Assembly (NCBI GenBank): GCA_017640615.1
Contig: JAEPQK010000007.1
Coordinates: forward strand, 104,407-168,406
Length of the DNA stretch: 64,000 nt
Direction: 5' to 3'
Source: Rhizobiaceae bacterium
GTDB lineage: Bacteria; Pseudomonadota; Alphaproteobacteria; Rhizobiales; Rhizobiaceae
Position numbers and translations under genes: made by a program. The notes under the pieces were generated by a model. It ran no database searches. It had not been told where the DNA came from and saw only the letters and a program-made list of their open reading frames with translations. This document shows, one piece after another, positions 16,011 to 29,340 of this stretch. How positions within the stretch are numbered: position 1 is the first letter of the stretch; each line of letters starts with the position of its first letter.

Positions 16011-16781
16011 ATGCATAGCGGCACAGGCACGCTGGGAAAGGCTATCGCAGTTCTGGACGCGGTTGCTGCGTCGCAGGTTCCGTTGCGATTTACGGACCTG
16101 CTAGCGCGTGTCGATCAGCCACGAGGAACACTTCACCGGCAGATATCCAATCTCGTCGAAGAGGGTCTGCTCCAGGTCAATTCCGATCATTCATACGAAC
16201 TCGGGATTCGACTGCTGAGATTTGCCTCCAACGCCTGGTCACGCAGCAAATTCAGGAACATAGCCGAGCCGCATTTGATTGAGCTGCACAAGAAGGTCGG
16301 TGAAACGATCCACCTTGGCGTGCTGCAGGGCATAGAGGTCATCTATCTCGACAAGGTGGAATCCAGCCAGGCAGTTCGCATGCACAGCCAGATTGGAAAC
16401 GCGTCGCCCTGCTACTGCACAGGCGTTGGCAAGGCCGCGCTCTCGCTGCTTTCGCCAGCGCAGCTCGAAGAGCGCATCAGCGTGATCGAGTTTCGGAATT
16501 ACACCCCCACCACCATTGCCGATGCAGACGGCCTGCGCCGAGAGATCGAGGACATTCGAGCCAAGGGCTACGCGCTCGACCGCGAGGAGCACGAAGCGGG
16601 AATTCATTGCGTTGCCGCCGCGATCGGCTCGCCCGGAGAACCGCTGGCTGCTGGCATCTCGATTACGGCCCCCGTTTATCGCCTGCCTCTTGAGACCCTG
16701 GAATCCTGGGCCGGCGAAGTGCACCAGGCCGCGGCGGCAATCACAGAAGATATGAGAGTGCGGGCCGGCCCACGGGGCTGA
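16011..16781 (+). CDS. IclR-family transcriptional regulator
   Basis: N-terminal wHTH ([14 protein letters not shown]...[29 protein letters not shown]) plus an IclR effector domain. Divergent from the sugar ABC operon. Confidence 0.9.
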
Positions 16782-16804
16782 TCGGACCTGCGGAGAGGAA
16801 CGAG

Positions 16805-17887
16805 ATGGCAGACGTCGAGCTTACCAATCTGAAAAAGTCCTTCGGCAAAGTGGATGTGATCCATGGCGTTGATCTGTCCATCAATTCAGGCGAGTTCGTC
16901 GTTTTCGTCGGGCCGTCGGGCTGCGGAAAGTCGACCCTTCTTCGTCTTGTCGCCGGGCTGGAGGACGCAACCGGCGGCAAGATCACCATCGGCGATCTCG
17001 ATGTCACACATCTCGAGCCGGCCGAGCGCGGCGTCGCCATGGTGTTCCAGTCATACGCGCTCTACCCGCATATGACGGTCGAAGAGAATATGGGTTTCGG
17101 CCTCAAGATGACCGGCACCGAAAAGCGGGTCGTTAGTGAGCGGGTAAACAAAGCCGCGCAGATTCTCCATCTCGAACAGTTGTTGCAACGCAAGCCGAAA
17201 CAGCTCTCGGGCGGGCAGCGGCAGCGCGTGGCGATCGGGCGGGCAATCGTTCGCGAGCCCAAGGTCTTTCTCTTCGACGAGCCGCTGTCGAACCTGGACG
17301 CCGAATTGCGCGTGCAGATGCGGCTTGAGATCGCAAAACTGCACAGCGACCTCGGCGCGACGATGATCTATGTGACGCATGACCAGGTCGAGGCGATGAC
17401 GCTTGCCGACAAGATCGTCGTCTTACGCGCAGGCAAGATCGAGCAGGTTGGTGCGCCACTTGAACTATATGGCAACCCGGACAACCAGTTCGTCGCAGGC
17501 TTCATCGGCTCACCGAAAATGAACTTCCTGCGCGGGGTGGTTACGGAAAGAAACGCCTCCGGCGCGACGGTCCAGCTCGGCGAGCACCAAAGCGAACCGT
17601 TCATCCTGCCGGGCATCTCGGAAGCTCAGGTCAACCAGGAAGTGCTCGTCGGCATCCGGCCGGAACATTTCAACCCGACCGGAAGCGCGTCAATCGAGGC
17701 ACCCATCGACGTCATCGAGCATCTGGGGGGCGTTTCCTATGGCTATTCCGACGCCGGCTCGGACGACCCGCTCACCATCGGGCTCACCGAGGGCGACAAC
17801 GCCACGCCTGGAGCGCGCTACACCGCGCACTTCGATCCTGCGCGCGCTTTCCTGTTCGATCCAGCGACCGGGCTTAGAGTGCGCTGA
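16805..17887 (+). CDS. sugar ABC transporter ATP-binding protein (MalK/UgpC-like)
   Basis: Walker [10 protein letters not shown], signature LSGGQRQR, Walker [12 protein letters not shown], and a C-terminal TOBE-like regulatory domain. Confidence 0.9.
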
Positions 17888-17916
17888 CTTTAACGCCACG
17901 CTACGCGGCATCCACA

Positions 17917-18618
17917 CTATCGCAAGCGCGAGACGTAGCGCGCTGTATCTGGGTCAAACCAAGTTCGGGAAAACTCAGCAGACACGCCCTCATTGGTCCA
18001 TGCTGATCGTTCGATGTAACCGGCCGGTGCTCCAACGCTCAGCTGAAAGTCAGGCGGCGTCCAATCCGGCAATGCGCAGACACCGATGCGATCTTCAGCG
18101 CGGGCAATCCAAAAGCCGAGCGCCTTGCGATAAAACAGGTAGAGGGACTCGGAGAGGTCGCTCTTGGTGATCGTCTCGGCCAGCGAGCCGTCGAGCCATA
18201 TTTCTTCCACAGCCGCAAGTTTGCCGCCGAGGCTGCGCAAGCGACGGATGCGATGCCCTTCCCCGCTTGTACCGAATTGCGGCAGGTCGTCCGGCTTGCG
18301 CATGCGCACGACCGAAAGCACACGGGCGGTCGGCAGCCCACCTCCGGCGATCAGTTCGAGGCGGAACATCGCGTAGACGCTGTTCACGTCCGCTCGGGAG
18401 CGCACATAATTGCCCGACCCCTGAACACGCTCCAACATGCCCTGTCGTGTCAGCTCTGCCAGCGATTTGCGTAAGGTGCCAACCGCAATTCCGAGCGTGG
18501 CAGCCATTTCACGTTCCGGCGGAAGCTTCTCGCCGTCGACCATGCGGCCGGCAGCAATTTCGCGGATCAGCATTTCTGCGACCTGCTGATGAACTGGCAA
18601 AGAATGGCGATCTTGCAT
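17917..18618 (-). CDS. GntR/HutC-family transcriptional regulator (SmoD-like by context)
   Basis: N-terminal HTH LPPEREMAATLGIAVGTLRKSLAELTRQGMLERVQGSGNYV plus a UTRA-size C-terminal domain. Divergent from the LLM monooxygenase operon. Confidence 0.85.
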   Translation of the reverse strand: MQDRHSLPVHQQVAEMLIREIAAGRMVDGEKLPPEREMAATLGIAVGTLRKSLAELTRQGMLERVQGSGNYVRSRADVNSVYAMFRLELIAGGGLPTARVLSVVRMRKPDDLPQFGTSGEGHRIRRLRSLGGKLAAVEEIWLDGSLAETITKSDLSESLYLFYRKALGFWIARAEDRIGVCALPDWTPPDFQLSVGAPAGYIERSAWTNEGVSAEFSRTWFDPDTARYVSRLR

Positions 18619-18634
18619 GAGCCTCGGCGAAAAA

Positions 18635-18654
18635 ATTGATACACTATTGATCTA
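18635..18654. promoter_or_regulatory. candidate GntR/HutC operator (ATTGATACACTATTGATCTA), copy 1
   Basis: AT-rich 20-mer in the GntR/LLM divergent region. It is the exact reverse complement of 26360-26379 and is followed by the palindrome TATTGAT-CTAC-ATCAATA. Confidence 0.6.
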
Positions 18655-18731
18655 CATCAATACGGATGGTACCCATTTCGAAAATCCCGCCATCCGTATG
18701 GCCATAACCAGCATTTGGAACATAGCCGAGA

Positions 18732-19889
18732 ATGTCGATCGTGCCTATCACATCGCCGGATTTGGATACCTCGGAGGTCTCCTGGTTTGCCGCGCTATGT
18801 TCGGACGATTATGCCTTTCTCGGCGTGCCCGACGGTAAATTGAGGTCGAGCTGGGATCACTGTTCGAAGATCGTGAAGACAGCCGAAGCGCAGGGCTTCC
18901 GAAACATCCTTTGCCCGTCCTCCTATCAGGTTGGGCAGGACACACTTTCCTTCGTCGCGGGCTGCGCTCCAATAACATCCAAGATCAACATGCTGGCGGC
19001 GGTTCGTTGCGGCGAGATGCAGCCCATCATGCTGGCGCGCACGGTGGCCACGCTCGATCACATGCTGGAGGGCCGGCTTACCATCAACATCATCTCGTCG
19101 GACTTCCCCGGCGAAAAGGCGGATTCGGCTTTTCGCTACCGGCGCTCTCACGAGGTGGTTGAAATCCTTCGCCAGGCCTGGTCGCAGGACAAGATCAACC
19201 ACGAAGGCGAAGTCTATTCGTTCAAGGATGTCTGGACCGAGCCGGCCAAGCCCTATCAGCAAAATGGCGGTCCGCTGATGTATTTTGGCGGCTACTCGCC
19301 GGATGCGCTCACCCTGTGCGGCCAGTTCTGCGATGTGTACCTGATGTGGCCTGAGCCAAAGGAGCAGATCGCGCAGCGCATGCGCGACGCCAACGCGGCG
19401 GCCGAAAAGTTCGGACGCACGCTCGACTATGGTCTGCGTGTCCACATGATCGTGCGCGATACCGAGAAAGAAGCGCGCGAGTATGCCGACCATCTTGTCT
19501 CGAAACTCGATGACGAATTCGGGCGACTGATCCGCGAGCGCGCTCATGATTCCAGCTCACTGGGTGTCTCGCATCAGGCTCGCGCGAGAGAGCTGGCCGA
19601 TCAGTTCGGCTATGTCGAGCCGCATCTTTGGACCGGCATCGGGCGGGCACGTTCGGGCTGTGGTGCGGCGCTGGTGGGCTCCGCCGACCAGGTGCTTTCT
19701 GAAATCGAGGAGTACCGAAAGATGGGCATTCGCTCCTTCATCTTCTCCGGCTACCCGCATCTCGACGAATGTGAACACTTCGGCCGGCTCGTAATGCCAG
19801 AACTGAAAACCTGCTCGCTGCCGCATGAATATGGGCGGGTGCCAGCTGGAACGCCGGCAACCCCCCTCGGAACGGGAGCACGTCACTGA
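18732..19889 (+). CDS. LLM-class flavin-dependent monooxygenase (SsuD/alkanesulfonate monooxygenase-like; SmoC-like by context)
   Basis: 385 aa with luciferase-like monooxygenase features (GRLTINIISSDFPGE...). First gene of a translationally coupled trio. Confidence 0.85.
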   Translation: MSIVPITSPDLDTSEVSWFAALCSDDYAFLGVPDGKLRSSWDHCSKIVKTAEAQGFRNILCPSSYQVGQDTLSFVAGCAPITSKINMLAAVRCGEMQPIMLARTVATLDHMLEGRLTINIISSDFPGEKADSAFRYRRSHEVVEILRQAWSQDKINHEGEVYSFKDVWTEPAKPYQQNGGPLMYFGGYSPDALTLCGQFCDVYLMWPEPKEQIAQRMRDANAAAEKFGRTLDYGLRVHMIVRDTEKEAREYADHLVSKLDDEFGRLIRERAHDSSSLGVSHQARARELADQFGYVEPHLWTGIGRARSGCGAALVGSADQVLSEIEEYRKMGIRSFIFSGYPHLDECEHFGRLVMPELKTCSLPHEYGRVPAGTPATPLGTGARH

Positions 19890-20782
19890 TGGAACGGGTG
19901 AAGATAGCCGACGGTCTCGAATTCTCGCGCATTGTTTATGGCACCTGGCGCCTGGGCGACGACAGCGACACGTCGGCAAAGCATATCCAGGCCAAGATCG
20001 AGAGCTGCCTTGAGCAGGGGATCACCACGATCGACCAGGCCGATATTTATGGCGGCTACACAGCCGAGGCCCTGCTCGGCTCGGCATTCAAGGCCGCTCC
20101 ATCGTTGCGCGAAAAACTCGAGATCGTCACCAAATGCGGCATCGTTGCCCCAGCCGGGCGCTACTCCGATGCGCGGGTGAAATACTACGATACCTCGGCC
20201 GATCACATTCGCCGGTCGATCGAACATTCGCTCAAGGAAATGAGTATCGAGACCATCGATCTGCTGCTTATTCACCGTCCGGACCCTTTCATGGATCACC
20301 ATGAAACGGGCGGCGCGCTCGATGAGGCAGTTGCCAGCGGCAAGGTGCGCACGGTCGGCGTTTCGAACTTCCGTCCTTATGACTTCTCGCTGCTCCAGTC
20401 GGCAATGAAAAATCGTCTGGTGACCAATCAGATCGAGCTTTCGCTGCAATGCCACGAGCCATTTGTGAACGGCGACGTCGCCTATCTGCAGGAGCGCGAT
20501 CTTTCGCCGATGGCCTGGTCGCCGCTCGGCGGTGGTCAACTCTTTAGCAATGCCGGCTCAGAGCTGACGTCGAAGATCGATCGGCTTGCCAAGGCGAATG
20601 GTGTCGATGCGGCTTCCATTGCGATCGCTTGGCTGCTCGCACATCCCGCAAAGATATTGCCGGTCATGGGCACGAACCGCCTGGATCGCATTGCACTGTT
20701 CTCGGATGCGATGAAGGTCGGGATGGATCGCGAGACCTGGTTTGAGCTCTACACCGCCGCGCTAGGGCGAGAGGTTGCCTGA
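19889..20782 (+). CDS. aldo/keto reductase (YdhF-like; SmoB-like by context)
   Basis: MERVKIADGLEFSRIVYGTWRLGDD... is an AKR N-terminus, and DIYGGYTAE resembles the AKR active-site region. TGATG overlap with the upstream stop. Confidence 0.85.
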   Translation: MERVKIADGLEFSRIVYGTWRLGDDSDTSAKHIQAKIESCLEQGITTIDQADIYGGYTAEALLGSAFKAAPSLREKLEIVTKCGIVAPAGRYSDARVKYYDTSADHIRRSIEHSLKEMSIETIDLLLIHRPDPFMDHHETGGALDEAVASGKVRTVGVSNFRPYDFSLLQSAMKNRLVTNQIELSLQCHEPFVNGDVAYLQERDLSPMAWSPLGGGQLFSNAGSELTSKIDRLAKANGVDAASIAIAWLLAHPAKILPVMGTNRLDRIALFSDAMKVGMDRETWFELYTAALGREVA

Positions 20783-21315
20783 TGTACCATTTTGCCGATC
20801 AGGGGAATTCGATGAGAAGCTTTGTCCCCGGCCCGGAGAGGACACGCGAGTTCCGCGACGCCCTCGGGCGATTTGCAACCGGAGTTACTGTCGTCACCAC
20901 GCAAACGAACCAAGGCCCGGTTGGCATCACGGCCAACAGCTTTGCATCGGTCTCTCTCGACCCGCCGATCGTGCTGTGGTCGATCGGCCGGCACTCCAAG
21001 CGCTTTGCCGCATTCGCCGAGTGCGAGCATTTCGCGGTCCACATTCTTGGCGCGGAGCAGATCAGCCTGAGCCGCCGCTTCGCCAAGGCCGGAAATGCCT
21101 TTGCCGGGCTCGGCTTCGTCCGCAATGACGTCGGCGTACCTCTTCTCGATGGGTGCCTGTCCCGTTTCGAATGCCGGCGTATAGCCGGGCACGAAGGCGG
21201 CGACCATCTCATCATGCTGGGAAAGGTGGCCAATGCGACGCTGCGCGACGGCGAGCCGCTGCTCTTCGCGGGCGGTGACTATGGCCGCTTCGACGGCTTT
21301 ACGCCTGTCGCGTAA
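20782..21315 (+). CDS. flavin reductase family protein (HpaC/SsuE-type partner; SmoA-like by context)
   Basis: FRDALGRFATGVTVVTT...GITANSFASVSLDPPIVLWSI is the flavin reductase-like domain signature. TGATG overlap with the AKR stop. Confidence 0.85.
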   Translation: MYHFADQGNSMRSFVPGPERTREFRDALGRFATGVTVVTTQTNQGPVGITANSFASVSLDPPIVLWSIGRHSKRFAAFAECEHFAVHILGAEQISLSRRFAKAGNAFAGLGFVRNDVGVPLLDGCLSRFECRRIAGHEGGDHLIMLGKVANATLRDGEPLLFAGGDYGRFDGFTPVA

Positions 21316-21318
21316 ATA

Positions 21319-22422
21319 TCAGATTCGCTTCGTCTGATAGCGCTCTGAAAGCGAACGTCCGGTTTCCGCGTCGAAGAGATGGGCCAGAGCCGGGTCGATC
21401 TCGACGTGGATGACTTCGCCCGGTTCAACTGGAACCTGCCCCTGCATATGAACGGTGATATCGGTCCCGTCCGGAACGATTCCGTAGACAAAGGTCTCGC
21501 CGCCAAGCTGTTCAACAGACTTGGCTTCGACCGGCATGCCATCACCGTCTTTCGAAAGGCGCAGATGGTTGGGACGAATACCAAGCTCGACAGAGGTGCC
21601 CGGCGCCACTGCGAAGCGTGACCTGTCGAGCGCGAGTTCGGCGCCCTCGGACACGAACCTGATCCCCGCCACTTCACCATCGGCGACTGTGCCGCCAATG
21701 AAGTTCATCTTCGGCGAGCCGATAAAGCGCGCAACGAAGCTGTTTGCTGGATGGTTGTAAAGATCGAGCGGCGCGCCGAACTGTTCGAGCAAGCCGGCGC
21801 GCAGAACCGCGATCTTGTCGGCCATGGTCATTGCTTCCACCTGATCGTGGGTCACATAGACCATCGTGTTGCCGAGCTTGCGGTGGAGTGTCGATATCTC
21901 GCCGCGCGTAGCCACACGGAGCTCCGCGTCGAGGTTCGACAGAGGTTCGTCGAACAGGAAGATCCGCGGTTCGCGTACAACCGCACGCCCGATCGCGACA
22001 CGTTGGCGCTGGCCGCCAGAGAGCTGACCGGGCCGTCGGTCAAGATAGTCCTCGATCTGTAGCATTCGCGCGGCTTCATTGACGCGCATGTCGATTTCCG
22101 GCCGTGGCATATTCACGTTTTCCAGGCCGAACGAGAGGTTGCTGCGCACGCTCATATGCGGATAGAGCGCGTAGGACTGGAACACCATCGCAAGCCCGCG
22201 CTTGGCGGCGGGAATGGCGTTCACGACCTCACCGTCGATGGCAACTTCGCCGGCGGTGATATCTTCCAGCCCGGCGATCATTCTCAGCAGGGTTGATTTG
22301 CCGCAGCCGGATGGGCCAACAAACACGCAGAATTCGCCCGATGGAATATCAAGGTCGATGCCATGGATGGCGGGGACCTTGCCGTAGCGCTTTTTGACTG
22401 CCCGAAGTTCTAGCCTAGCCAT
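21319..22422 (-). CDS. sugar ABC transporter ATP-binding protein (MalK/UgpC-like)
   Basis: Walker [10 protein letters not shown], signature LSGGQRQR, Walker [12 protein letters not shown]. Its stop lies 3 bp from the convergent flavin reductase stop. Confidence 0.9.
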   Translation of the reverse strand: MARLELRAVKKRYGKVPAIHGIDLDIPSGEFCVFVGPSGCGKSTLLRMIAGLEDITAGEVAIDGEVVNAIPAAKRGLAMVFQSYALYPHMSVRSNLSFGLENVNMPRPEIDMRVNEAARMLQIEDYLDRRPGQLSGGQRQRVAIGRAVVREPRIFLFDEPLSNLDAELRVATRGEISTLHRKLGNTMVYVTHDQVEAMTMADKIAVLRAGLLEQFGAPLDLYNHPANSFVARFIGSPKMNFIGGTVADGEVAGIRFVSEGAELALDRSRFAVAPGTSVELGIRPNHLRLSKDGDGMPVEAKSVEQLGGETFVYGIVPDGTDITVHMQGQVPVEPGEVIHVEIDPALAHLFDAETGRSLSERYQTKRI

Positions 22423-22429
22423 CTGACAC

Positions 22430-23866
22430 CTATTTCATGCCGGAATTGGCGATACCGGTGGTGATGTATCGCTGCAGGAAAACGAAGACGAGCGTGGTCG
22501 GGATCAGGCTGACCACCGTCATCGCAAGCCGGTAATGCTCCTGGCTGATGTGCTCGCCTCGGAACTCAAGCAGGCATAGCTGGATCGTGTAAGCTTCCTT
22601 GGTCGTCGAGATCGCGACCATGGGGATAATGAGATCGTTCCAGCGCCAGATGATGGAAAGAATGCCGAGTGCCGCGATCGCCGGCAGTGCCAGCGGCAAC
22701 ACGATGCGCCAGTAGACTTTCCACTCGCTGGCAGAATCCATGCGTGCCGCTTCCATAAGTTCGTCAGGGATGGTCAGCATGTACTGCCTGAGCAGGAACA
22801 CGCCCGCCGGCGTCGCGGCGCCCGGTATGATCACACCCCAGATAGAACCTGACAGCCCGGTCGCGTTGATCGCCTTGAATACGCCGACCAGCGTGATCGT
22901 TGCCGGCACCATGAGCGTGGTCAGGATGATCGTCAGAAACAGAACCTGACCGCGAAAGCGGTATTTCGACAGAGCGAATCCGGCCATCGAATTGATCAAC
23001 AGGGTGATGATCGTCGCGATGATCGTAACCAGCACCGAATTGGTGATGCATGTCGCGAAATTGACGTTCACGCCGTAAGCCTTGCCGCGCAACGGGTCGA
23101 GATAGTTGCCCCAGGCCGGCCGAAATTTGCGGCTCGCCGTGACGGTTTCGACCGGCAAACGCACCACACCCTCAATCGAACCATCGACGGCGCGACCCGG
23201 AAGGAATTCGGCCTGCGGATTGATGTCCGGTATGGCCCATTCCATGGCTTCGCCGGTTTCCGGATTGGGCGCTGTGACCAGTACCTGCGTCACAAGCCGG
23301 TTGGGATCGAAAGGCGAGACGCCGAGATACTCTTTGATGAGGCGCACCTCGTCCGGTGCGAGGCCCTGTAGTGCGCCTTCCAGATCGAACGCCTTTCGAG
23401 CGTCGTCGGTGAGCGAATTGTAGCGGTTCAGCCAGTCGGGCAGATTTTTCTGCGCAATCAGTGCGCGGGCTGCTTCAGGCACCTGATCGAGATGGCTTCG
23501 CAGTGCGTAATATTCACGGCCGCTATACGCCGTCAGAAAGGCCTCTACGTCGATATCGGCCTGCTCGCTTGCCGAAAGACTACGCCAGTTGAGCACCCAG
23601 TCGGGCAGGTCCGAAATGATGAAAATCTCGCGTCCGTCCGGTCCGTTGACGGTCGCGCGCGCGACACGCTCATAGTCGCCCGGCAGCAGCGAAAGATCCT
23701 GCTTTTCGATCTGGAATGCCGTCTTGACCGAATTGATGCCAAGCCAGAGAACCGGCAGGAAAATGATCAGAAAGCCGAGCAGCAGATAAGCGTAGGCAAC
23801 CCAGTCGGTCCACGAGAGCCGATTGCGGCCCTGCGTTCTGGTAAGGAACTCCCAGACCGTGCTCAT
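22430..23866 (-). CDS. carbohydrate ABC transporter permease with a ~200-aa periplasmic insertion after TM1
   Basis: C-terminal half is a MalG-type permease (EAARMDSASEWKVYWRIVLPLALPA). Residues ~50-260 are a hydrophilic insert between TM1 and TM2. Confidence 0.85.
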   Translation of the reverse strand: MSTVWEFLTRTQGRNRLSWTDWVAYAYLLLGFLIIFLPVLWLGINSVKTAFQIEKQDLSLLPGDYERVARATVNGPDGREIFIISDLPDWVLNWRSLSASEQADIDVEAFLTAYSGREYYALRSHLDQVPEAARALIAQKNLPDWLNRYNSLTDDARKAFDLEGALQGLAPDEVRLIKEYLGVSPFDPNRLVTQVLVTAPNPETGEAMEWAIPDINPQAEFLPGRAVDGSIEGVVRLPVETVTASRKFRPAWGNYLDPLRGKAYGVNVNFATCITNSVLVTIIATIITLLINSMAGFALSKYRFRGQVLFLTIILTTLMVPATITLVGVFKAINATGLSGSIWGVIIPGAATPAGVFLLRQYMLTIPDELMEAARMDSASEWKVYWRIVLPLALPAIAALGILSIIWRWNDLIIPMVAISTTKEAYTIQLCLLEFRGEHISQEHYRLAMTVVSLIPTTLVFVFLQRYITTGIANSGMK

Positions 23867-24924
23867 CGCGCGTTCCGCCCTGACAGAGCAATCTGGGCGA
23901 CCGATAGAAGCGCCAGCACGCCCGCGGCGATCAGCGAGGCCGTAGCCGCAATGCCGAGGCCGTTGGCCGTGGGCTGACCACGCAAGCCGGCCGTCTCGAA
24001 GATATACGAGACAAGCGACATCCAGCTCACCTGCATTGCGTAGAGTTCCTCAAAGGCCTGAAACGCCTTGATGAGCGAAAGAACGGTGACGACGAGCAAA
24101 GTAGGCATGAGCAGCGGCAGCGTAATGCGCGTGAGCATGCGCCAGTCGGAGGTGCCGTCCATCTCGGCTGCTTCATAGAGGTCGCCGGGAATCGCCTGCA
24201 GACCAGCAAGCAGAATGAGCATGTAAAAGCCCAGATGCGCCCAGGTGTAGACGAGCACGGACCAGAACATGGTCCAGGCCGGATCGACCAGCCACTGTAT
24301 CGGCTCATCGATGATGCCCCAATCCATGAGCGTCAGAGACAAAAGCCCCTGGCGCTTCAGTATCAGCGTCCACAGGAAGCCGACGACAACCGGGCTCAGC
24401 ATGACTGGATAGAAAAAGATGGAGCGCCAGAAACCGCGCGCCACGATGTTGCGGTTCAACACAAGCGCGGTGACCAGAGAGAAGAACACCATGATCGGCA
24501 CCTGGAACACGACAAACACAGCCGTATCCATCACCGACCGGTGGAACTTGTCGTCTTCGAGATTTACGCCACCGGTGTCGATCTGCGTTTCGGCGAGCAG
24601 GCGCGACCAGTTGTCTGTGCCAGCGAACGGCCGGTCGCTGAAGTTGATGCTTTGTCCCTCGGTGAAGGAAAAGCCGACATTTATGAACAGCGGCGCGAAG
24701 GTGTAGATGCCGAAGATCAGCAGATTGGGCAGCAAGAACAGGTAGGGCATCGGCCCTGCCCCGGCGAGCTTTTGTGCTAGCTCGATCGGCCACCCGACGA
24801 CGCCCATGACGCGGGCCTGCAGGCTACCGCGAGGGCGCGAAACAATCGCGCCGACAACAAAATAAGCGAGGATGGCGAAAGGCCAGCCGGAGCCGCCAAA
24901 GGCGGCTTCGATAGCGGTCCACAT
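23863..24924 (-). CDS. carbohydrate ABC transporter permease
   Basis: EAA loop EAAEMDGTSDWRMLTRITLPLLMPT. 4-nt overlap with the downstream permease. Confidence 0.85.
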   Translation of the reverse strand: MWTAIEAAFGGSGWPFAILAYFVVGAIVSRPRGSLQARVMGVVGWPIELAQKLAGAGPMPYLFLLPNLLIFGIYTFAPLFINVGFSFTEGQSINFSDRPFAGTDNWSRLLAETQIDTGGVNLEDDKFHRSVMDTAVFVVFQVPIMVFFSLVTALVLNRNIVARGFWRSIFFYPVMLSPVVVGFLWTLILKRQGLLSLTLMDWGIIDEPIQWLVDPAWTMFWSVLVYTWAHLGFYMLILLAGLQAIPGDLYEAAEMDGTSDWRMLTRITLPLLMPTLLVVTVLSLIKAFQAFEELYAMQVSWMSLVSYIFETAGLRGQPTANGLGIAATASLIAAGVLALLSVAQIALSGRNAR

Positions 24925-24957
24925 AGGGCGGCTCCGGTTGCTGGCCTAAGCCGGTTG

Positions 24958-26226
24958 CTATTCGGCGATTTTCGCGGCGACGTCGGCGTCGATCGCTGCG
25001 AGCGCGTCGTCCAGAGATATCTCACCAACGATCGCCTTCGTGATGTAGTCGGGCACGATGCCGTAAATCACGAAGTTCTTGGAGTAGCCCTGGAAGGTGA
25101 AGCCCTGTGGAGCCGTTTCGGCGGCCTTGGCGATTGAAGTTGAGAAGGTCGACAGGGCAGCTGAAACCGCAGGCTCGGTTGCGCCGTAGTCCACGCCTTT
25201 GGCGAGCAGGCCCTCATGCGCGGTGATAGACTTTGTGCCGGCGGCATATTTCGCCGCGTTCTCCTCGCGCGCCATGTAGGCGACGAAGCCCGCAGCCGCT
25301 TCCGGGTTCGCGGTCGATTTGAATGCGACCAGACCTGAACCGCCCGGCATGGCGCCACAACCGCCAGGTCCGCACGGAGCCGGCACAGCCCGCCACTCGA
25401 AGTCTTTGATGTTGCTCGCGTAGTTGTTGATCATCCACGAGCCGGACATGTGCATCGCGACCTTGCCCGACAGGAAAAGAGGCGCGGCGTTCTGATACTG
25501 CGTGCCGCTGCCGGCCGGCCAGCCCTCTACAGGCATCAAACCATTCTCATGCCAGCCGACGAAGGTCTCTGCGAAGCTGCGGAACCCATCGTCGACGAGA
25601 ATCGGTGTACCGCTTTCGTCAAAGAACTTCGCGCCATACGAGAAGGCGGGGCCGGCCCAGCGGTGCGCTGTACGGTCCATTGCCAGTCCGGCATCGAGGC
25701 CGAGCGTTTCCTTGACTTCCATCAGGGCCGCCGCCCAGTCTTCCCATGTCGCGCCCTCGCCAGGCATTTCGACGCCTGCATCGTCGAACATGGTCACATT
25801 CACATATGGGCCCGTGACAGTGAGCTCCATCTGCCAGCCGTAAATACCCATATCCTCGCCGCCGGGCCGGCGGTACCAGGGCAGCACAGCCTTGAAGTTC
25901 TGGTTGAAATAGTCGGCATCCACATGCGGCGTCAGGTCCAGATAGTACTGGTTGAGCCCACCCAGATTGTTGACGCGCGCAACATCGGGCGCAGCACCTG
26001 TCTGAAGCTGGTTTTCCAGCTGGTCGCGAACAACCTCGTAGCCAACCTTCTCGGTGATGACGGTGTGACCGGACTCCTCTTCGTAGCCCTTCGCGATTTC
26101 CTCCAGAACGTCGCACTCATTGCCGTTCTGGAAGCACAAAAACTTTATTTCGGCGGCGAAGGATGGCGCCGCAGGCGCGATTGCGCTGATCAGCACGCCG
26201 GCTGCAAGCCAGTTCTTGTAGAGCAT
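24958..26226 (-). CDS. carbohydrate ABC transporter substrate-binding protein (SmoF-like by context)
   Basis: Start moved to MLYKNWLAAGVLISAIAPAAPSFA (signal peptide), preceded by GGGAGGA. Confidence 0.85.
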   Translation of the reverse strand: MLYKNWLAAGVLISAIAPAAPSFAAEIKFLCFQNGNECDVLEEIAKGYEEESGHTVITEKVGYEVVRDQLENQLQTGAAPDVARVNNLGGLNQYYLDLTPHVDADYFNQNFKAVLPWYRRPGGEDMGIYGWQMELTVTGPYVNVTMFDDAGVEMPGEGATWEDWAAALMEVKETLGLDAGLAMDRTAHRWAGPAFSYGAKFFDESGTPILVDDGFRSFAETFVGWHENGLMPVEGWPAGSGTQYQNAAPLFLSGKVAMHMSGSWMINNYASNIKDFEWRAVPAPCGPGGCGAMPGGSGLVAFKSTANPEAAAGFVAYMAREENAAKYAAGTKSITAHEGLLAKGVDYGATEPAVSAALSTFSTSIAKAAETAPQGFTFQGYSKNFVIYGIVPDYITKAIVGEISLDDALAAIDADVAAKIAE

Positions 26227-26359
26227 TTCAGTTCCTCCCATTGGACCACCCGCGTGGTTCCTGATTGACTCGTTGGCTGCGCGATCAACCACATATCCGG
26301 CTCAAAGGGCATGCGAGCGGGCGCACTGCCATGTTAAAATTTAACAGCCTTTCACGAAA

Positions 26360-26379
26360 TAGATCAATAGTGTATCAAT
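26360..26379. promoter_or_regulatory. candidate GntR/HutC operator (TAGATCAATAGTGTATCAAT), copy 2
   Basis: Identical 20-mer in inverted orientation, in the divergent region between the binding-protein/ABC operon and the Gfo/Idh/MocA gene. Confidence 0.6.
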
Positions 26380-26476
26380 CGTGCCGGTCGCGCGGCCAAA
26401 TGGCCCGCGATCTTGCCACAGATGACGTCCGGCAGAGAGAACCACTGACCGCGCGCAATCTCTCCCGGGAGGACAT

Positions 26477-27568
26477 ATGACAATTCGATACGGTATCCTC
26501 GGCGCCGGCTTCATGGGCCAGGAGCATATTCGCAATATCGGCTTCATCGACGGTTGCGAGGTAACCGCCTTCTATGAGCCCGACGCGGCAATGAGAGCGT
26601 CCGCGCAGACGCTCGTTCCAAACGCGAAAGACTGCGCATCTCTGGAAGAGTTGCTTGGGCACAAGGACATCGACGCTCTCGTCATCGCGACACCCAACTA
26701 CCAGCATGCCGGACAGCTGCGTGAAATCTCAGCGATACGTCAGCTTCCCATCCTGGTCGAAAAGCCGCTCGTCGTGCGCGCGGAAGATCGCGGCGTGATC
26801 GAAGACCTGGAGAAGACCTATTCCGCCCCAATCTGGGTCGGCATGGAGTATCGCTACATGCCACCGCTGAAACGGTTTCTGGAGGAAGTCGAAGAGGCTA
26901 CCGGCGGTGTGCGTCATGTCAGCATTCGCGAACACCGATTTCCGTTTCTGGTGAAGGTGGGCAACTGGAACCGATTCAACAAAAACACCGGCGGGACGCT
27001 GGTCGAAAAATGCTGTCATTTTTTCGATCTTATGCGCCTGATCGCACAGGCTGACCCGGTACGCGTTCAAGGTTCGGGCTGGCAAGCAGTGAACCACAAG
27101 GATGAAGGCGGTGAAGGCGTCCCGGACATCTGGGACGCCGCGTTTGCAATCGTCGATTTCGACACCGGAACGCGCGCGATGCTCGATCTGTGTATGTTTG
27201 CCGAAGGTGCGCATTATCAGGAAGAGATCACCGCTGTCGGCCCCAAGGGCAGAATTGATTGCCTGATTCCGGGTCCGTCGCGTCGCTGGCCGGCGCATCT
27301 CGGCGATCAACCCAACGCAAAAATTGTCATCTGGCCGCGCGACATGAGCCGCAAGATCGAGATACCGATGCCTGTGGATCACACGCTGGCGGGTGCCGGC
27401 GATCATCACGGCTCGACCTATTTCCAGCACATCGCATTCCGCGACATGCTGCTAAATGGCGGAAAGCCTGCGGTGACATTGCGCGACGGCTGGCTCGCAG
27501 CCGAGATGGGCATGGCGGCACAGCAAGCATCAGAAACCGGCTCCGCGGTCTCCATCCAGGCACCATAG
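26477..27568 (+). CDS. Gfo/Idh/MocA-family NAD-binding oxidoreductase (candidate NAD-dependent sulfoquinovosidase, see findings)
   Basis: N-terminal Rossmann motif IRYGILGAGFMGQEHIRNI, with EKPL in the usual position. Divergent from the binding-protein/ABC operon. Confidence 0.85.
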   Translation: MTIRYGILGAGFMGQEHIRNIGFIDGCEVTAFYEPDAAMRASAQTLVPNAKDCASLEELLGHKDIDALVIATPNYQHAGQLREISAIRQLPILVEKPLVVRAEDRGVIEDLEKTYSAPIWVGMEYRYMPPLKRFLEEVEEATGGVRHVSIREHRFPFLVKVGNWNRFNKNTGGTLVEKCCHFFDLMRLIAQADPVRVQGSGWQAVNHKDEGGEGVPDIWDAAFAIVDFDTGTRAMLDLCMFAEGAHYQEEITAVGPKGRIDCLIPGPSRRWPAHLGDQPNAKIVIWPRDMSRKIEIPMPVDHTLAGAGDHHGSTYFQHIAFRDMLLNGGKPAVTLRDGWLAAEMGMAAQQASETGSAVSIQAP

Positions 27569-27626
27569 ACAGACGCTACCGGCTGACCGACTCCAAGTAC
27601 CTGGCGACGCAATTCGCTCCAGTGCG

Positions 27627-27644
27627 CTCCCTCATTTGGGAGAG
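27627..27644 (+). promoter_or_regulatory. island palindrome S0: CTCCCTCATTTGGGAGAG
   Basis: 18-bp imperfect palindrome 61 nt upstream of the DUF3137-like copy 1 ATG. Confidence 0.6.
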
Positions 27645-27705
27645 GCAAAACCACGACGATGACGGCAATTTCCGGCGGCACGATCACCAGCGACGAGAGC
27701 CGGAC

Positions 27706-28674
27706 ATGGACGACAGACCCGCCACAGCCGCGAGCAGCGGCGACGGCTTCGACTCATATTTCCAGCGCGAGGTCGAACCGGCGCTCGATGCGCTGGAAGA
27801 AAAGCGTGCGACACACGTTCTTTACGTCAAGATTCTGCTCGCAGTCGCAGCGCTGTTTCTGGCAGTCATTCTGTTCAAGGCTTTGACGCGGGACGGCGCG
27901 TCCGAGCAGCTCTTTGAAAACCAGCTGGTCGGGCTCGCCGTTTTTGCGCTCATGTTCATTCCGCTGGTTGCTGCCTTCCTGATCTACCACCGGCTGACAC
28001 GTGCCTATAAGGGCGTGCTCACCGGCAGGATCTGTGACTATTTCGGCTTTGAGTTCGAGGCGCGCGGCTTCGACTTTCCGGTCAACGATTTCGCGGCAGT
28101 GATCCCTCCTTACCGCAGGAAGCAGCTCGAAGACCGGATTGCTGGCCAACACGACGGGGTCAACTTTGCCCTTTGCGAAGCCCGCTTGATGCGCCGTTCC
28201 GACGGCAAGGACAGCGAGGACAAGGAAGTCTTCCGGGGCCTGCTCCTGGCGTTCGAATTGCTCGAGCCATTCAAGGGCGAGACGGTTCTGACACCGGACT
28301 GGGGCGGCGCCGTCAATCTGCTCGAGAGCTGGAGGCAGAAGGGCGAGCGCGTGCTGCTGGAAGGAATCGAATTCGAGGAAACCTTCGAGGTCTACTCCAC
28401 CGATCCGCTAGAAGCGCGTGCCATCCTCACACCGCTCTTCATGGAACGGGTGATGCAACTTGCCGAGCATCTCGGCAGTCGCAAAGGCGTGAGCCTTGCG
28501 TTTCAGGGAAACCGGCTTCTTCTGGCGATCAGGCATTTGCGCACCGAGGGCCGGTTCGAGGCAGGGCACGTCTTCTCCGAGATCGACAATTGGCCTGAAC
28601 GCGCTCAGCGCGTGAAAGATCAGATCGAAACCGTTCTCGGTATCGTCGATGTGTTGAAACTCAGGCCTGTCTGA
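27706..28674 (+). CDS. DUF3137-like membrane protein (copy 1)
   Basis: In frame with ORF 27259..28674, which overlaps the previous gene; start set to ATG 27706. Two N-terminal TM helices (ILLAVAALFLAVILF, LAVFALMFIPLVAAFLIY) then a soluble domain. Architecture and LemA neighbourhood match what I recall of DUF3137; needs an HMM. Confidence 0.6.
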   Translation: MDDRPATAASSGDGFDSYFQREVEPALDALEEKRATHVLYVKILLAVAALFLAVILFKALTRDGASEQLFENQLVGLAVFALMFIPLVAAFLIYHRLTRAYKGVLTGRICDYFGFEFEARGFDFPVNDFAAVIPPYRRKQLEDRIAGQHDGVNFALCEARLMRRSDGKDSEDKEVFRGLLLAFELLEPFKGETVLTPDWGGAVNLLESWRQKGERVLLEGIEFEETFEVYSTDPLEARAILTPLFMERVMQLAEHLGSRKGVSLAFQGNRLLLAIRHLRTEGRFEAGHVFSEIDNWPERAQRVKDQIETVLGIVDVLKLRPV

Positions 28675-28690
28675 GCCGCTGATCTCGAAA

Positions 28691-28708
28691 CTCCCCCAAA
28701 TGGGAGAG
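28691..28708 (+). promoter_or_regulatory. island palindrome S1: CTCCCCCAAATGGGAGAG
   Basis: 59 nt upstream of the lemA ATG and 16 nt after the preceding stop. Confidence 0.6.
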
Positions 28709-28767
28709 TGCCCGCGCCACGTTTTCCGCGAAACGAAAGGTGGAAAATACAGCAGATTGGGCACCCC

Positions 28768-29340
28768 ATGACAGTCACTCTCATTGCACTCGTCGTTCTC
28801 GGTTTCGTCGTCATCCAGAACCGGCTGGCGAGCGCACAGAACGCGGTCTATTCGGGCTTCTCCACGATCGAGGTTCAGCTCAAGCGGCGACACGATCTGG
28901 TTCCAGCACTTGTCAGCTCCGTTCGCAGCGCGATCACACAGGAAAACAAACTGTTCGACACCATTCTCGCTGTTCGCGAGAAGGCCGTACAGGCCGTCGG
29001 TCAGGGCAAGCTGGACGAGATGAAAGAGGCCGAGGCCGAGCTGTCTGCGTCTTTGCGGACGTTCTTCGGATACGCGGAAGATCACCCCGAGGTGACCTCG
29101 ACCACGAACATTCTTGAGCTACAGAAGCAGCTTGAGGAGGCCGAGGACCAGATCAGCGCCGCCCGGCGGCTCTACAATGGCAATGTCCAACGCTTCAACA
29201 CAATGCTGGATGCGATCCCCTCCAACTGGGTAGCCGGCCTTCTCCGGATGAAGAAAGCCGAGTTTTTCGCACTATCGGATTCGGAAGCCAAAGCCGCTCA
29301 TACGATGCCGAAGATCGAATTGCCAGGCGCTCAAGGATGA
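28768..29340 (+). CDS. lemA: LemA family protein
   Basis: MTVTLIALVVLGFVVIQNRLASAQNAV...QLKRRHDLVPALV...ISAARRLYNGNVQRFNTML is the typical LemA layout of one N-terminal TM plus a helical domain. The track ORF starts at GTG 28708. Confidence 0.85.
   Translation: MTVTLIALVVLGFVVIQNRLASAQNAVYSGFSTIEVQLKRRHDLVPALVSSVRSAITQENKLFDTILAVREKAVQAVGQGKLDEMKEAEAELSASLRTFFGYAEDHPEVTSTTNILELQKQLEEAEDQISAARRLYNGNVQRFNTMLDAIPSNWVAGLLRMKKAEFFALSDSEAKAAHTMPKIELPGAQG

Follow-up and report, generated by a model that had tools for sequence, protein, structure and literature searches.

A predicted sulfoquinovose monooxygenase gene cluster of marine type with a GH188 SqgA candidate in place of a GH31 sulfoquinovosidase

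Nine genes at the locus

We analyzed a 64-kb stretch of DNA (the window), in which positions 17917-27568 hold nine genes. Pfam, NCBIfam, and homology confirmed their coordinates and families as the original prediction had given them. A GntR/HutC-family, SmoD-like regulator (17917-18618, minus strand) has a Pfam GntR helix-turn-helix domain (residues 11-72) and a UTRA domain (residues 95-225) and is divergent from smoC. The plus strand then carries smoC (18732-19889), a luciferase-like monooxygenase gene whose product is predicted to convert sulfoquinovose (SQ) to 6-oxo-glucose and sulfite with FMNH2 and O2; smoB (19889-20782), for a predicted NADPH-dependent aldo/keto reductase that would reduce 6-oxo-glucose to glucose; and smoA (20782-21315), for a predicted HpaC/FerA-type NAD(P)H:flavin reductase supplying FMNH2. 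TGATG stop/start overlaps couple smoC to smoB (19886-19890) and smoB to smoA (20779-20783), both as predicted. An ABC importer is encoded on the minus strand, with a MalK/UgpC-type ATPase gene (21319-22422) convergent with smoA, genes for a 478-amino-acid MalG-type permease (22430-23866) and a 353-amino-acid MalF-type permease (23863-24924), and a gene for a periplasmic CUT1 solute-binding protein (SBP) of 422 amino acids (24958-26226). The last gene, sqgA (26477-27568, plus strand), encodes a cytoplasmic Gfo/Idh/MocA family protein, predicted to be a GH188 NAD+-dependent sulfoquinovosidase that cleaves sulfoquinovosyl glycerol (SQGro) to SQ and glycerol.

SmoC, SmoB, SmoA, and SqgA

The monooxygenase matched SmoC proteins by phmmer, with an E value of 9.7e-225 (749 bits) for 7OH2 (RoSmoC, the crystallized Rhizobium oryzae SQ monooxygenase) and 2.1e-220 (735 bits) for 7OLF (AtSmoC). 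Both alignments were gapless over residues 1 to 385, and identity to RoSmoC was 82.1%. MsuD and SsuD scored only 200 and 183 bits, far below SmoC, and we rejected them as assignments; the enzyme is a SmoC rather than a member of a non-SQ clade. All five sulfonate-site residues described in PMC8795539 are conserved (W206, R236, H238, Y341, and H343). SmoB likewise grouped with its characterized counterpart (7BBY, AtSmoB; E value of 1.2e-136, gapless over residues 1 to 297, 68.0% identity). It keeps the catalytic tetrad and NADPH site as D49, Y54, K82, H129, F219, T262, N263, and R267, equivalent to the published D71, Y76, K104, H151, F241, T284, N285, and R289 with a construct offset of 22. SmoA matched Pfam Flavin_Reduct (E value of 2.9e-38) and NCBIfam FerA at 221 bits, under that model's cutoff, and is 53% identical to the same-position gene product of the Rhizobium sp. 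SL42 cluster. In about 30 loci, smoB is followed by a smoA homologue. Agrobacterium tumefaciens C58 also has a flavin reductase (Atu3277), and we named SmoA by family and position.

The original prediction had proposed the Gfo/Idh/MocA protein as a candidate NAD-dependent sulfoquinovosidase, and comparison with the characterized GH188 enzymes bore this out. Its best matches were 8ZN9 (RdSqgA, the Roseobacter denitrificans enzyme validated by Ma et al. 2025, PMC12780224; E value of 7.4e-127, 426 bits, 54.7% identity), 8QC2 (FlSqgA; 1.2e-98, 334 bits, 46.1% identity), and 8QC3 (ArSqgA; 1e-95, 324 bits), and the next match was at 2e-12. The identity to RdSqgA just exceeds the 54% cutoff of Ma et al. 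2025, which we counted against our assignment. The active-site and sulfonate-binding signature is complete, with K96, Y125, R154, L158, K160, E177, and H181 corresponding to RdSqgA K98, Y127, R156, L160, K162, E179, and H183. We propose that H310 is equivalent to ArSqgA H321, a correspondence drawn from the conserved GDHHGSTY motif. We found no signal peptide on SqgA, and the SBP has one, so SqgA can act only if a glycoside is taken up into the cell.

Operator-like sites

The window contains two exact copies of the 20-mer ATTGATACACTATTGATCTA, an ATTGAT direct repeat with 11-bp spacing (core ATTGAT-N5-ATTGAT), one in each divergent promoter region. Site 1 (18635-18662, plus strand) lies between gntR and smoC, with the 20-mer at 18635-18654, leaving 16 nucleotides (nt) to the gntR start codon on one side and 77 nt to the downstream smoC ATG on the other; it runs on into the inverted repeat TATTGAT-CTAC-ATCAATA at 18645-18662. 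Site 2 (26360-26379, minus strand) faces the transporter operon between the SBP gene and the divergent sqgA; it precedes the SBP ATG (26226) by 133 nt and the sqgA ATG (26477) by 97 nt. No further match with up to three mismatches was present in the window, and there were none in 100 shuffles, so that none would be expected by chance. In 33 of 34 related loci, the gntR-smoC spacer matches at least 16 of the 20 positions in the same orientation, and a homologue of the regulator is divergent from smoC in all 34. The 20-mer predicted to be common to both regions is thus a real, phylogenetically conserved operator-like site, as judged from sequence. A sigma-70 consensus scan of both intergenic regions gave no promoter, with matches not above chance, which we counted against the overall interpretation.

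The ABC importer

The ATPase carries the Pfam domains ABC_tran, OB_MalK, and TOBE_2 and scored 468 bits with the NCBIfam UgpC subfamily model, above its cutoff. Both permeases match BPD_transp_1. In the MalG-type permease this domain occupies residues 295 to 470, and hydropathy places a hydrophilic insert of about 215 residues between the first transmembrane segment (residues 19 to 51) and the next at residue 268; all relatives have a permease of this length, and an independent gene call agrees with it. The MalF-type permease is 60 to 83% identical to its counterparts in related loci with this gene. The SBP matches SBP_bac_1 and SBP_bac_8 and has a signal peptide ending SFA/AE; its open reading frame was listed as 24958-26292, and homologues and an independent gene call favor the ATG at 26226.

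The original prediction had likened the whole set to the smo cluster of A. tumefaciens. The enzymes, regulator, and presence of an ABC importer agree with this, but the importer is not SmoEFGH. Neither phmmer nor a family profile at E values up to 10 matched the SBP to SmoF (7NBZ/7OFY), and SmoF was absent from the 50 best Foldseek matches of an AF2 model of the SBP (pLDDT of 82), the best of which were generic MalE-like proteins with at most 20% identity. We rejected a relationship of the SBP to SmoF and assign the SBP to an uncharacterized CUT1 family; by sequence the transporter is analogous rather than orthologous to SmoEFGH. That the closest characterized or solved SBP is no more than 20% identical counts against our interpretation. 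From genomic context, we propose that the SBP is the SQGro/SQ receptor. In about 30 genomes, from Rhodobacterales and others, smoCBA is followed by the SBP-permease-permease-ATPase cassette. It adjoins gntR, sqgA, a PfkB kinase gene, and a fucose-isomerase-like gene in Thioalkalivibrio sp. HK1, and sulfo-EMP2-like genes with an SqgA-like gene keeping all signature residues in Pseudothioglobus and marine single-cell genomes. The window's four transporter proteins are closer to a stand-alone or non-SMO lineage than to SMO-linked cassettes (75 to 83% versus 62 to 74% identity for the SBP and permeases, 70 to 73% versus 62 to 69% for the ATPase).

GH31 and sulfite exporter genes

As predicted, there is no GH31 sulfoquinovosidase gene in the window: a six-frame tblastn search with a GH31 protein as the query gave a best E value of 4.8. 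Pfam searches of six open reading frames of 504 to 717 amino acids found GH42, VWA, methylmalonyl-CoA mutase, FadB-like, AMP-binding, and SBP_bac_5 proteins, and a 601-amino-acid frame (30487-32292) is Hydrolase_4 plus GerE. The long frames at 41772-43325 (517 amino acids) and 60811-62433 (540 amino acids) were covered by the tblastn search alone. The 64 kb also holds no PSE/YeiH-family putative sulfite/sulfate exporter gene, which counts against our interpretation, since the fate of sulfite is then not accounted for within the window. A PSE gene adjoins the cluster in 17 related loci of the ABC type and in both TRAP-type plasmid loci.

Comparison with known clusters

The window has the same enzyme set as the Roseobacter-clade clusters that combine a sulfo-SMO pathway with SqgA (R. 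denitrificans OCh 114, RD1_2308 and neighbors; PMC10755693, PMC12780224). We compared two annotated examples, Roseicitreum antarcticum pRA01 and a Rhizobium sp. SL42 plasmid, which share GH188 SqgA, the GntR regulator, smoC-smoB-smoA, the lack of GH31, and ATTGAT-N5-ATTGAT between gntR and smoC. SmoC is 81% identical to both, and SqgA and the same-position regulator of SL42 are 58% and 62% identical to those of the window. However, these clusters have a TRAP transporter (DctQMP) followed by the PSE gene where the window has an inverted CUT1 ABC cassette, and their sqgA follows gntR in tandem, whereas that of the window stands apart from gntR, past the transporter, and has an operator copy of its own. 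Rhodobacterales ABC-type clusters (e.g., Amylibacter marinus, Yoonia maritima, Thalassococcus halodurans, and Marivivens spp.; loci L015-L071) have the same nine gene families, the same SBP family (67 to 72% identity), and the long 478-amino-acid permease. Their order is sqgA-gntR divergent from smoC-smoB-smoA-SBP-permF-permG-ATPase(-PSE) around one operator region, whereas the transporter of the window is convergent with smoCBA. An SMO cluster "with an ABC transporter cassette" is also mentioned for a Marinovum sp. (bioRxiv 10.1101/2023.03.31.535182), and this cassette may belong to the same family.

Compared with A. tumefaciens C58 smoA-I (Sharma et al. 2022, PMC8795539), SmoC (82%, to RoSmoC) and SmoB (68%) keep their functional residues, and the importers belong to one superfamily, with SmoF not detectably related to the SBP. 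A GntR regulator is present in both (Atu3280 in C58), and ours is likened to SmoD by family and position. C58 has the GH31 enzyme SmoI, and the window has the GH188 enzyme in its place. The SqgA proteins of Arthrobacter sp. and Flavobacterium sp. K172 (PDB 8QC2-8QC8) share the two-domain Rossmann plus alpha/beta fold family, and their catalytic and sulfonate-binding residues are identical to those of the window (46% overall identity to FlSqgA). The founding Arthrobacter SqgA is encoded in a cluster of the sulfo-EMP rather than the SMO type (PMC10755693), and in other marine bacteria the CUT1 SBP family of the window is also found beside SqgA, in clusters that are sulfo-EMP2-like.

The pairing of SMO with an NAD-dependent sulfoquinovosidase has been described before. 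Kaur et al. 2023 (PMC10755693) reported SqgA in sulfo-SMO clusters without GH31, near-universally in the Roseobacter clade, and with Ma et al. 2025 (PMC12780224) the arrangement has been known in marine bacteria since publications of 2023-2025. Particular to the window are the rearranged layout, the second operator copy, an ABC rather than a TRAP importer, and the lack of a linked sulfite exporter, and the cluster looks like a mosaic of modules.

Proposed pathway and alternative explanations

We observed directly the gene content, the orthology of SmoC, SmoB, and SqgA with their functional residues, the duplicated conserved operator-like site, and the conserved synteny. On this basis, positions 17917-27568 very probably form a complete sulfolytic sulfo-SMO catabolic cluster of the "marine" type, with GH188 SqgA replacing GH31. 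Its substrate would be SQ, the sulfosugar of plants and algae, reached through the recently described NAD-dependent glycosidase and not the classical one. SQGro from algal sulfolipid, and possibly free SQ, would be captured in the periplasm by the 422-amino-acid SBP and imported through the two permeases and the MalK-type ATPase. Cytoplasmic SqgA would cleave the glycoside to SQ and glycerol, using tightly bound NAD+ to oxidize C3 transiently, with elimination, hydration, and re-reduction following. SmoC, with O2 and FMNH2 from SmoA, would cut the C-S bond to give 6-oxo-glucose and sulfite, and SmoB with NADPH would reduce 6-oxo-glucose to glucose. The regulator may bind ATTGAT-N5-ATTGAT in both divergent regions (gntR-smoCBA and transporter-sqgA) and probably keeps all four transcription units repressed in the absence of SQ or SQGro. 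Each activity, the transporter ligand, the regulator-operator pairing, and the effector are predicted from homology and synteny.

One alternative concerns uptake: the importer may carry only free SQ, and the substrate of SqgA would then be a different SQ glycoside, whether internal or imported. Earlier work, as cited in PMC10755693, held that Roseobacter-clade bacteria use free SQ, SQGro, the ligand of SmoF, is not transferable to an unrelated SBP, and the R. denitrificans TRAP system is described only as an "SQ/SQGro" importer. We consider this unlikely, because a cytoplasmic glycosidase that shares the operator of the importer is useful only if the glycoside enters the cell, R. denitrificans, with the same enzymes, grows on SQGro (PMC12780224), and a GH31 gene directly follows the same transporter cassette in 12 related loci. 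Far less probable is an unrelated sugar importer, for example for oligogalacturonides, that merely adjoins the smo genes. JGI labels several homologues [quoted passage not shown] and the closest relatives (L001, L005-L009, L031, and L047) have no smoC or sqgA within 10 kb, with SDR, CoA-transferase, enoyl-CoA hydratase, and GMC oxidoreductase genes, unrelated to SQ, beside L008. However, the transporter promoter of the window has the exact smo operator copy, and ATTGAT-N5-ATTGAT precedes the SBP gene in most stand-alone loci, about 180 to 280 nt upstream (L001, L006-L011, L017, L033, and L047), and occurs twice in L055. Moreover, more than 50 of the 80 loci show synteny of the cassette with SqgA, SmoC, or sulfo-EMP2-like genes.

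That SqgA is an ordinary sugar dehydrogenase, oxidizing, for example, SQ, glucose, or inositol, is slightly less probable still. Its Pfam and NCBIfam matches are generic (GFO_IDH_MocA; inositol 2-dehydrogenase at 89 bits, far under the 355-bit cutoff), but no PDB dehydrogenase scored above 50 bits against 324 to 426 bits for the three SqgA proteins, and a generic Gfo/Idh/MocA control lacks the signature residues, all kept here, at seven of nine positions checked. The least probable alternative is an assembly chimera of the smoCBA and transporter-sqgA halves joined within the conserved ATPase gene. Logan short-k contigs of DNA runs X1, X2, and X12 all end at 22017-22186, a stretch in which k-mers shared with other genomes raise the depth 3- to 37-fold, and contiguity across 22161-22186 therefore rests on the window assembly and the lineage of the ATPase. 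The smoA-side contig carries the C-terminal 279 residues and the permease-side contig the N-terminal 79, and the nearest relatives of both parts are ATPases from one transporter lineage, the one to which the permeases and SBP are also most similar. The gene reads through without a break to a full-length UgpC-type protein, and the three independent metagenome runs have the same layout with the same two ends, one from a strain 3 to 4% divergent. By sequence, the ATPase is not chimeric.

A 219-nt metatranscriptome contig, 99% identical to smoC at 19419-19637, hints that smoC is transcribed. The source of the cluster is an uncultured, alga-associated marine bacterium.

Gene content of the sulfoquinovose cluster

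Nine genes occupy window positions 17917-27568, and Pfam and NCBIfam placed them at the coordinates and in the families that the original prediction had given. The regulator gene (gntR, 17917-18618, minus strand) encodes a protein with a Pfam GntR winged helix-turn-helix domain at the N terminus and a UTRA effector domain at the C terminus. On the plus strand lie a luciferase-like monooxygenase gene with SmoC homology (smoC, 18732-19889), an aldo/keto reductase gene with SmoB homology (smoB, 19889-20782), and a gene for a Pfam Flavin_Reduct protein (smoA, 20782-21315). Both expected TGATG stop/start overlaps, smoC/smoB and smoB/smoA, are present. The minus strand carries a complete set of CUT1 (MalEFGK-type) importer genes, with a MalK/UgpC-type ATPase containing a TOBE domain (21319-22422; Pfam and NCBIfam), two Pfam BPD_transp_1 permeases, one MalG type of 478 amino acids (22430-23866) and one MalF type (23863-24924), and an SBP_bac_1/8 substrate-binding protein (SBP; ORF 24958-26292). 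Homologues and an independent gene call favor the ATG at 26226 as the SBP start codon, giving a 422-amino-acid protein. The ninth gene, on the plus strand, encodes a Gfo/Idh/MocA protein with GH188 homology (sqgA, 26477-27568).

The prediction that no GH31 gene is present was borne out by Pfam scans and by a tblastn search with a GH31 protein against all six frames of the 64-kb window (best E = 4.8). Six ORFs of 504 to 717 amino acids belong to other families by Pfam; the 601-amino-acid ORF at 30487-32292 is Hydrolase_4 plus GerE. A 668-amino-acid ORF (10648-12654) was considered as a hidden GH31 gene and rejected, since Pfam identifies it as GH42. Two further long ORFs (41772-43325 and 60811-62433) were covered by the tblastn search alone.

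The SMO enzymes retain their functional residues

The monooxygenase groups with SmoC, as had been proposed. It aligns without gaps across all 385 residues with the crystallized sulfoquinovose (SQ) monooxygenases, at an E value of 9.7e-225 and 82% identity to RoSmoC (7OH2) and an E value of 2.1e-220 to AtSmoC (7OLF), versus 5e-58 for MsuD and 1e-52 for SsuD, the next matches. The sulfonate-recognition constellation described for SQ monooxygenase, Trp206, Arg236, His238, Tyr341, and His343 (Sharma et al. 2022, PMC8795539), is present in full with identical numbering. The nearest relatives of the window SmoC are TRAP-type and Rhizobiales SmoCs (80 to 82% identity).

The aldo/keto reductase likewise groups with SmoB, with a gapless alignment to Agrobacterium tumefaciens SmoB (7BBY; E = 1.2e-136, 68% identity). 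Once the 22-residue tag of the 7BBZ/7BC1 construct is allowed for in the residue mapping, the catalytic tetrad (D49, Y54, K82, H129) and the contacts to the NADPH 2'-phosphate and adenine (T262, N263, R267, F219) are all kept. SmoA, whose gene overlaps smoB, is an HpaC/FerA-type Flavin_Reduct protein that is 53% identical to the product of the same-position gene in the Rhizobium sp. SL42 cluster.

The Gfo/Idh/MocA protein as a predicted GH188 sulfoquinovosidase

The suggestion that the Gfo/Idh/MocA protein takes the place of a GH31 enzyme was upheld at the sequence level. SqgA matched RdSqgA of Roseobacter denitrificans (8ZN9) with an E value of 7.4e-127, 426 bits, and 54.7% identity, FlSqgA (8QC2) with 1.2e-98, 334 bits, and 46.1% identity, and ArSqgA (8QC3) with 1e-95 and 324 bits. 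Every other PDB entry scored 50 bits or less, and ordinary Gfo/Idh/MocA dehydrogenases gave E values of 2e-12 or worse. RdSqgA is a demonstrated NAD+-dependent sulfoquinovosidase (SQase) (Ma et al. 2025, PMC12780224). The catalytic and sulfonate-binding residues named in the literature are K98, Y127, R156, L160, K162, E179, and H183 of RdSqgA and H321 of ArSqgA (PMC12780224, PMC10755693). The RdSqgA residues correspond at a constant numbering offset of +2 to K96, Y125, R154, L158, K160, E177, and H181 of the window protein, and H310 is proposed as the equivalent of ArSqgA H321 from the conserved GDHHGSTY motif. The catalytic set would then be K96, Y125, E177, H181, and H310, and the sulfonate triad R154, L158 (through its backbone), and K160. 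Nine positions were compared in a generic Gfo/Idh/MocA control protein, and at seven of them it lacked the signature residues. The Rossmann domain (GFO_IDH_MocA, residues 3 to 122) carries its GAGFMG motif at residues 9 to 14, right at the start of a protein that has no signal peptide; the SBP has a typical one. We predict that the window protein is a GH188 NAD+-dependent SQase. In FlSqgA, NAD+ serves as a catalytic cofactor in a sequence of C3 oxidation, elimination, hydration, and re-reduction (PMC10755693).

The combination of SMO enzymes with SqgA is already published. GH188 genes occur in sulfo-SMO clusters that have no GH31 gene, with "near-universal occurrence" in the SMO clusters of the Roseobacter clade (Kaur et al. 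2023, PMC10755693); in R. denitrificans the RdSqgA gene is found upstream of the SMO genes, and growth on sulfoquinovosyl glycerol (SQGro) was demonstrated (Ma et al. 2025, PMC12780224); and an ABC cassette in an SMO cluster of Marinovum is noted in a 2023 preprint (bioRxiv 10.1101/2023.03.31.535182). On these grounds the window is a further carrier of a known type with a variant layout; it adds one uncultured alga-associated bacterium to the SMO-plus-SqgA carriers and leaves the general picture unchanged.

An importer family unrelated to SmoF

The original prediction likened the whole gene set to the A. tumefaciens smo cluster. This likeness held for the enzymes and the type of regulator and failed for the binding protein. 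SmoF (7NBZ/7OFY) was not matched by the window SBP in a phmmer search of the PDB (E up to 1e-3) or by 24 members of the SBP family in a PDB profile search (E up to 10), and it was absent from the best 50 Foldseek matches of the SBP AlphaFold2 model (pLDDT 82). The same three approaches, when used to seek a characterized relative of the SBP, returned solely generic MalE-like proteins with identities of no more than 20%, so no ligand can be transferred to it. These searches indicate that the window importer is an analogue of SmoEFGH and not its orthologue.

An upstream SBP (14566-15894) was considered as the SmoF-like one and rejected; it is AcbH/XylA-like and part of a GH42 beta-galactosidase locus. 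The DctM-like and DctP-like genes at 55631-58612 are not an SQ-type TRAP system, with 31% and 27% identity to the Rhizobium sp. SL42 SMO TRAP proteins, and the 64 kb as a whole contain no TRAP system of the SMO type.

The SBP family is compact (67 to 81% identity) and occurs in 80 GTDB species representatives, nearly all marine. Residues that do not vary in an alignment of the family include R84, R185, H188, R189, W236, and W264. The MalG-type permease is unusually long, and its gene has the same length in all 80 related loci. Between TM1 and TM2, residues 52 to 267 form a hydrophilic insert (about 215 residues) that has no Pfam match and is, by its position, presumably a periplasmic domain.

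The genomic neighbors of the family are largely of SQ type. Around 30 genomes carry smoC-smoB-smoA followed by the transporter cassette, with sqgA and gntR on the opposite side; the genera include Amylibacter, Yoonia, Thalassococcus, Marivivens, Loktanella, Celeribacter, Epibacterium, Primorskyibacter, Tepidamorphus, and Litorivicinus. The next gene in 17 such genomes, at about position 14850 of the related loci, encodes a PSE-family putative sulfite/sulfate exporter. In Thioalkalivibrio sp. HK1 (locus L002, 4654-9821) the cassette lies beside gntR and an sqgA whose product is 62% identical to that of the window. This locus and the related L003 also encode a PfkB kinase, a fucose-isomerase-like protein, and a 441-amino-acid PhyH-family dioxygenase, with no smoC, a gene set that could represent a different oxygenolytic or EMP2-type SQ route. 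The cassette neighbors in Pseudothioglobus (fucose-isomerase-like protein, PfkB kinase, DeoC/LacD aldolase, 2-hydroxyacid dehydrogenase, and DeoR regulator) look like a sulfo-EMP2 set. L040, from a marine single-cell genome, has the isomerase-like, PfkB, and dehydrogenase genes in common with that set and has, in addition, a split TPP enzyme (ComDE-like) and a fusion of an aldose-1-epimerase with an EamA transporter. An SqgA-like gene (44% identity) with all signature residues retained is part of both sets, and in 12 sulfo-EMP2-like loci a GH31 gene directly follows the ATPase gene.

As a separate observation, L040 (2404-20555), like L035 to L046, L049, and L064 from marine single-cell genomes and MAGs, combines the transporter with an SqgA-like protein and a 793-amino-acid GH31 protein. 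Loci of this type, which also carry the fucose-isomerase-like, PfkB, and 2-hydroxyacid dehydrogenase genes, the split TPP enzyme, and the epimerase-EamA fusion, have two candidate SQases in one sulfo-EMP2-like cluster.

A conserved operator-like element links the enzymes and the importer

The exact 20-mer ATTGATACACTATTGATCTA, which had been reported for the transporter promoter region, lies both there and in the gntR-smoC spacer and has exactly two copies in the 64 kb (18635-18654 on the plus strand and 26360-26379 on the minus strand). There were no additional copies at up to 3 mismatches in the window and none in 100 shuffles. Of the 34 related loci with divergent gntR and smoC, among them those of Granulosicoccus, Litorivicinus, a Rhizobium plasmid, and a Roseicitreum plasmid, 33 have this element in the gntR-smoC spacer, with 16 or more of the 20 positions matching and with an orientation toward smoC that never changes. 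Its consensus, ATTGATACAC[C/T]ATTGAT[C/T][C/T]A, usually with NATCAA next, combines an ATTGAT direct repeat (11-bp spacing) with an inverted half-site; the window version of the inverted repeat is TATTGAT-CTAC-ATCAATA at 18645-18662. A scan of 17800-27700 for sigma-70 promoters and intrinsic terminators gave no excess over chance and nothing in either intergenic region.

With one mismatch allowed, ATTGAT-N5-ATTGAT has 74 matches in the 1.55 Mb of all loci, against about 7 expected by a rough estimate that assumes uniform composition. Most matches lie either in the gntR-smoC spacer or about 180 to 280 nt upstream of the SBP gene. Locus L055 has two copies (9833-9849 and 14828-14844), with the SBP gene and smoC each preceded by one. 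The motif also precedes the SBP gene (at about position 10000) in the stand-alone transporter loci L001, L006 to L011, L017, L033, and L047, where smoC, sqgA, and gntR are all missing within 10 kb. This arrangement points to a dispersed regulon whose regulator gene lies elsewhere. We interpret the conserved motif as a phylogenetic footprint of a regulator-binding site, which places the transporter in the same regulon as the enzymes. The adjacent GntR/HutC protein would be the binder, and SQ or SQGro the effector. With this well-supported operator consensus for the SmoD-type regulator, SQ regulons can be predicted, among them transporter operons distant from the catabolic genes.

Synteny with smoCBA, the other SQ-type neighbors, and the operator together tie the SBP family to SQ. 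On balance, we consider it probable that these proteins form a so far uncharacterized SQ/SQGro importer family, unrelated to SmoF, that acts as a portable uptake module for sulfo-SMO and sulfo-EMP2-like pathways, is paired with GH188 or GH31 enzymes, and in its alphaproteobacterial branch is wired to a SmoD-type regulator through ATTGAT-N5-ATTGAT. The family extends across marine Alpha- and Gammaproteobacteria (Rhodobacterales, Granulosicoccaceae, Litorivicinus, Thioglobus/SUP05 relatives, and single-cell genomes). Our literature search found no characterization of the 422-amino-acid SBP family; it may be discussed by Liu et al. 2023 (ISME J), reportedly the primary description of Roseobacter SMO clusters. 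The SBP family is a clear candidate for marine SQ/SQGro uptake, unrelated to SmoF or the TRAP system. According to a 2026 review (PMC13436972), the means by which aquatic bacteria obtain SQ substrates "remains largely unknown," and an importer family of this kind, if confirmed, would address that gap.

A variant, possibly mosaic layout

The R. denitrificans cluster and those on the Roseicitreum and Rhizobium sp. SL42 plasmids have the layout sqgA-gntR / smoCBA-TRAP-PSE, and the common ABC-type layout is sqgA-gntR / smoCBA-SBP-permF-permG-ATPase(-PSE). The window differs from both in that the transporter is inverted and converges on smoA, and sqgA is detached from gntR and divergent from the transporter, with a separate operator copy in this second promoter region. 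A third architecture is seen in L055 (sqgA-gntR / SBP-permF-permG-ATPase / smoCBA), with two operator copies as in the window. Compared with the sulfo-SMO cluster of Sharma et al. 2022, which has the GH31 enzyme SmoI and a SmoF-type SQGro-binding protein, the window uses GH188, as does the published marine variant, and an SBP that is not of the SmoF type. Both TRAP-type plasmid loci and 17 ABC-type loci have a PSE-family exporter; the whole 64-kb window has no PSE/YeiH-family gene, which leaves sulfite disposal unaccounted for there.

The transporter proteins are closer to the stand-alone or non-SMO lineage (SBP, 75 to 80%; PermF, 78 to 83%; PermG, 74 to 79%; ATPase, 70 to 73% identity) and consistently less similar to the SMO-linked lineage (62 to 74%). 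We infer that an smo enzyme module and a self-regulated transporter module have come together here as a mosaic, which would be evidence that SQ clusters are built from exchangeable modules (enzymes, importer, glycosidase, and exporter).

An assembly chimera joined inside the ATPase gene was considered. In the region 21772-22433, all short-k Logan contigs from three DNA runs end within this gene, between 22017 and 22186, with a 3- to 37-fold rise in depth. However, the C-terminal part of the ATPase (279 residues, smoA side) and its N-terminal part (79 residues, permease side) are both nearest to ATPases paired with the same transporter lineage, and the gene is continuous and encodes a full-length UgpC-type protein, so we rejected a chimera. 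The contig breaks come from k-mers shared with ABC ATPases of other organisms and not from a structural variant. Three independent metagenome runs give the same gene order, one identical, one nearly identical, and one 3 to 4% divergent.

Proposed pathway

The original interpretation of the cluster is supported, with the transporter corrected from an orthologue to an analogue of SmoEFGH. SQGro, and possibly SQ, from algal sulfolipid would be caught in the periplasm and brought into the cell by the ABC importer, a ligand assignment that we draw from context. In the cytoplasm, SqgA would cleave the glycoside with NAD+ as a catalytic cofactor, SmoC would use FMNH2 from SmoA and O2 to produce 6-oxo-glucose and sulfite, and SmoB would reduce 6-oxo-glucose to glucose with NADPH. 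We infer these enzyme steps from orthology to characterized proteins and intact functional residues. The GntR/HutC protein, acting at the two operators, probably represses all four transcription units until the sugar arrives; its pairing with the operators and its effector are also read from context.

Occurrence and flanking genes

The organism is known solely from metagenomes, and the cluster region occurs in marine and alga-associated ones. The best relatives of individual window proteins are split between Rhodobacterales and Hyphomicrobiales. The sole RNA-derived sequence found for the cluster was a 219-nt contig from a synthetic-community metatranscriptome that matches smoC at 19419-19637 with 2 differences, which is too little for claiming expression of the cluster.

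Upstream, the cluster is bounded by an unrelated sugar-utilization locus (10648-17887), which consists of the GH42 beta-galactosidase gene (10648-12654), the genes of an ABC transporter, and a regulator gene, in the following order: the GH42 gene, two permease genes (12685-14532), the AcbH/XylA-like SBP gene (14566-15894), an IclR regulator gene (16011-16781), and a second MalK-type ATPase gene (16805-17887) in the opposite orientation to the cluster ATPase gene, the two products being about 50 to 60% identical. Directly downstream of sqgA is a DUF3137, LemA, and DUF3137-like trio (27259-30368), followed at 30487-32292 by the gene for a fusion of Hydrolase_4 with a LuxR/GerE domain; as far as can be told, the trio and the fusion gene are unrelated to SQ.
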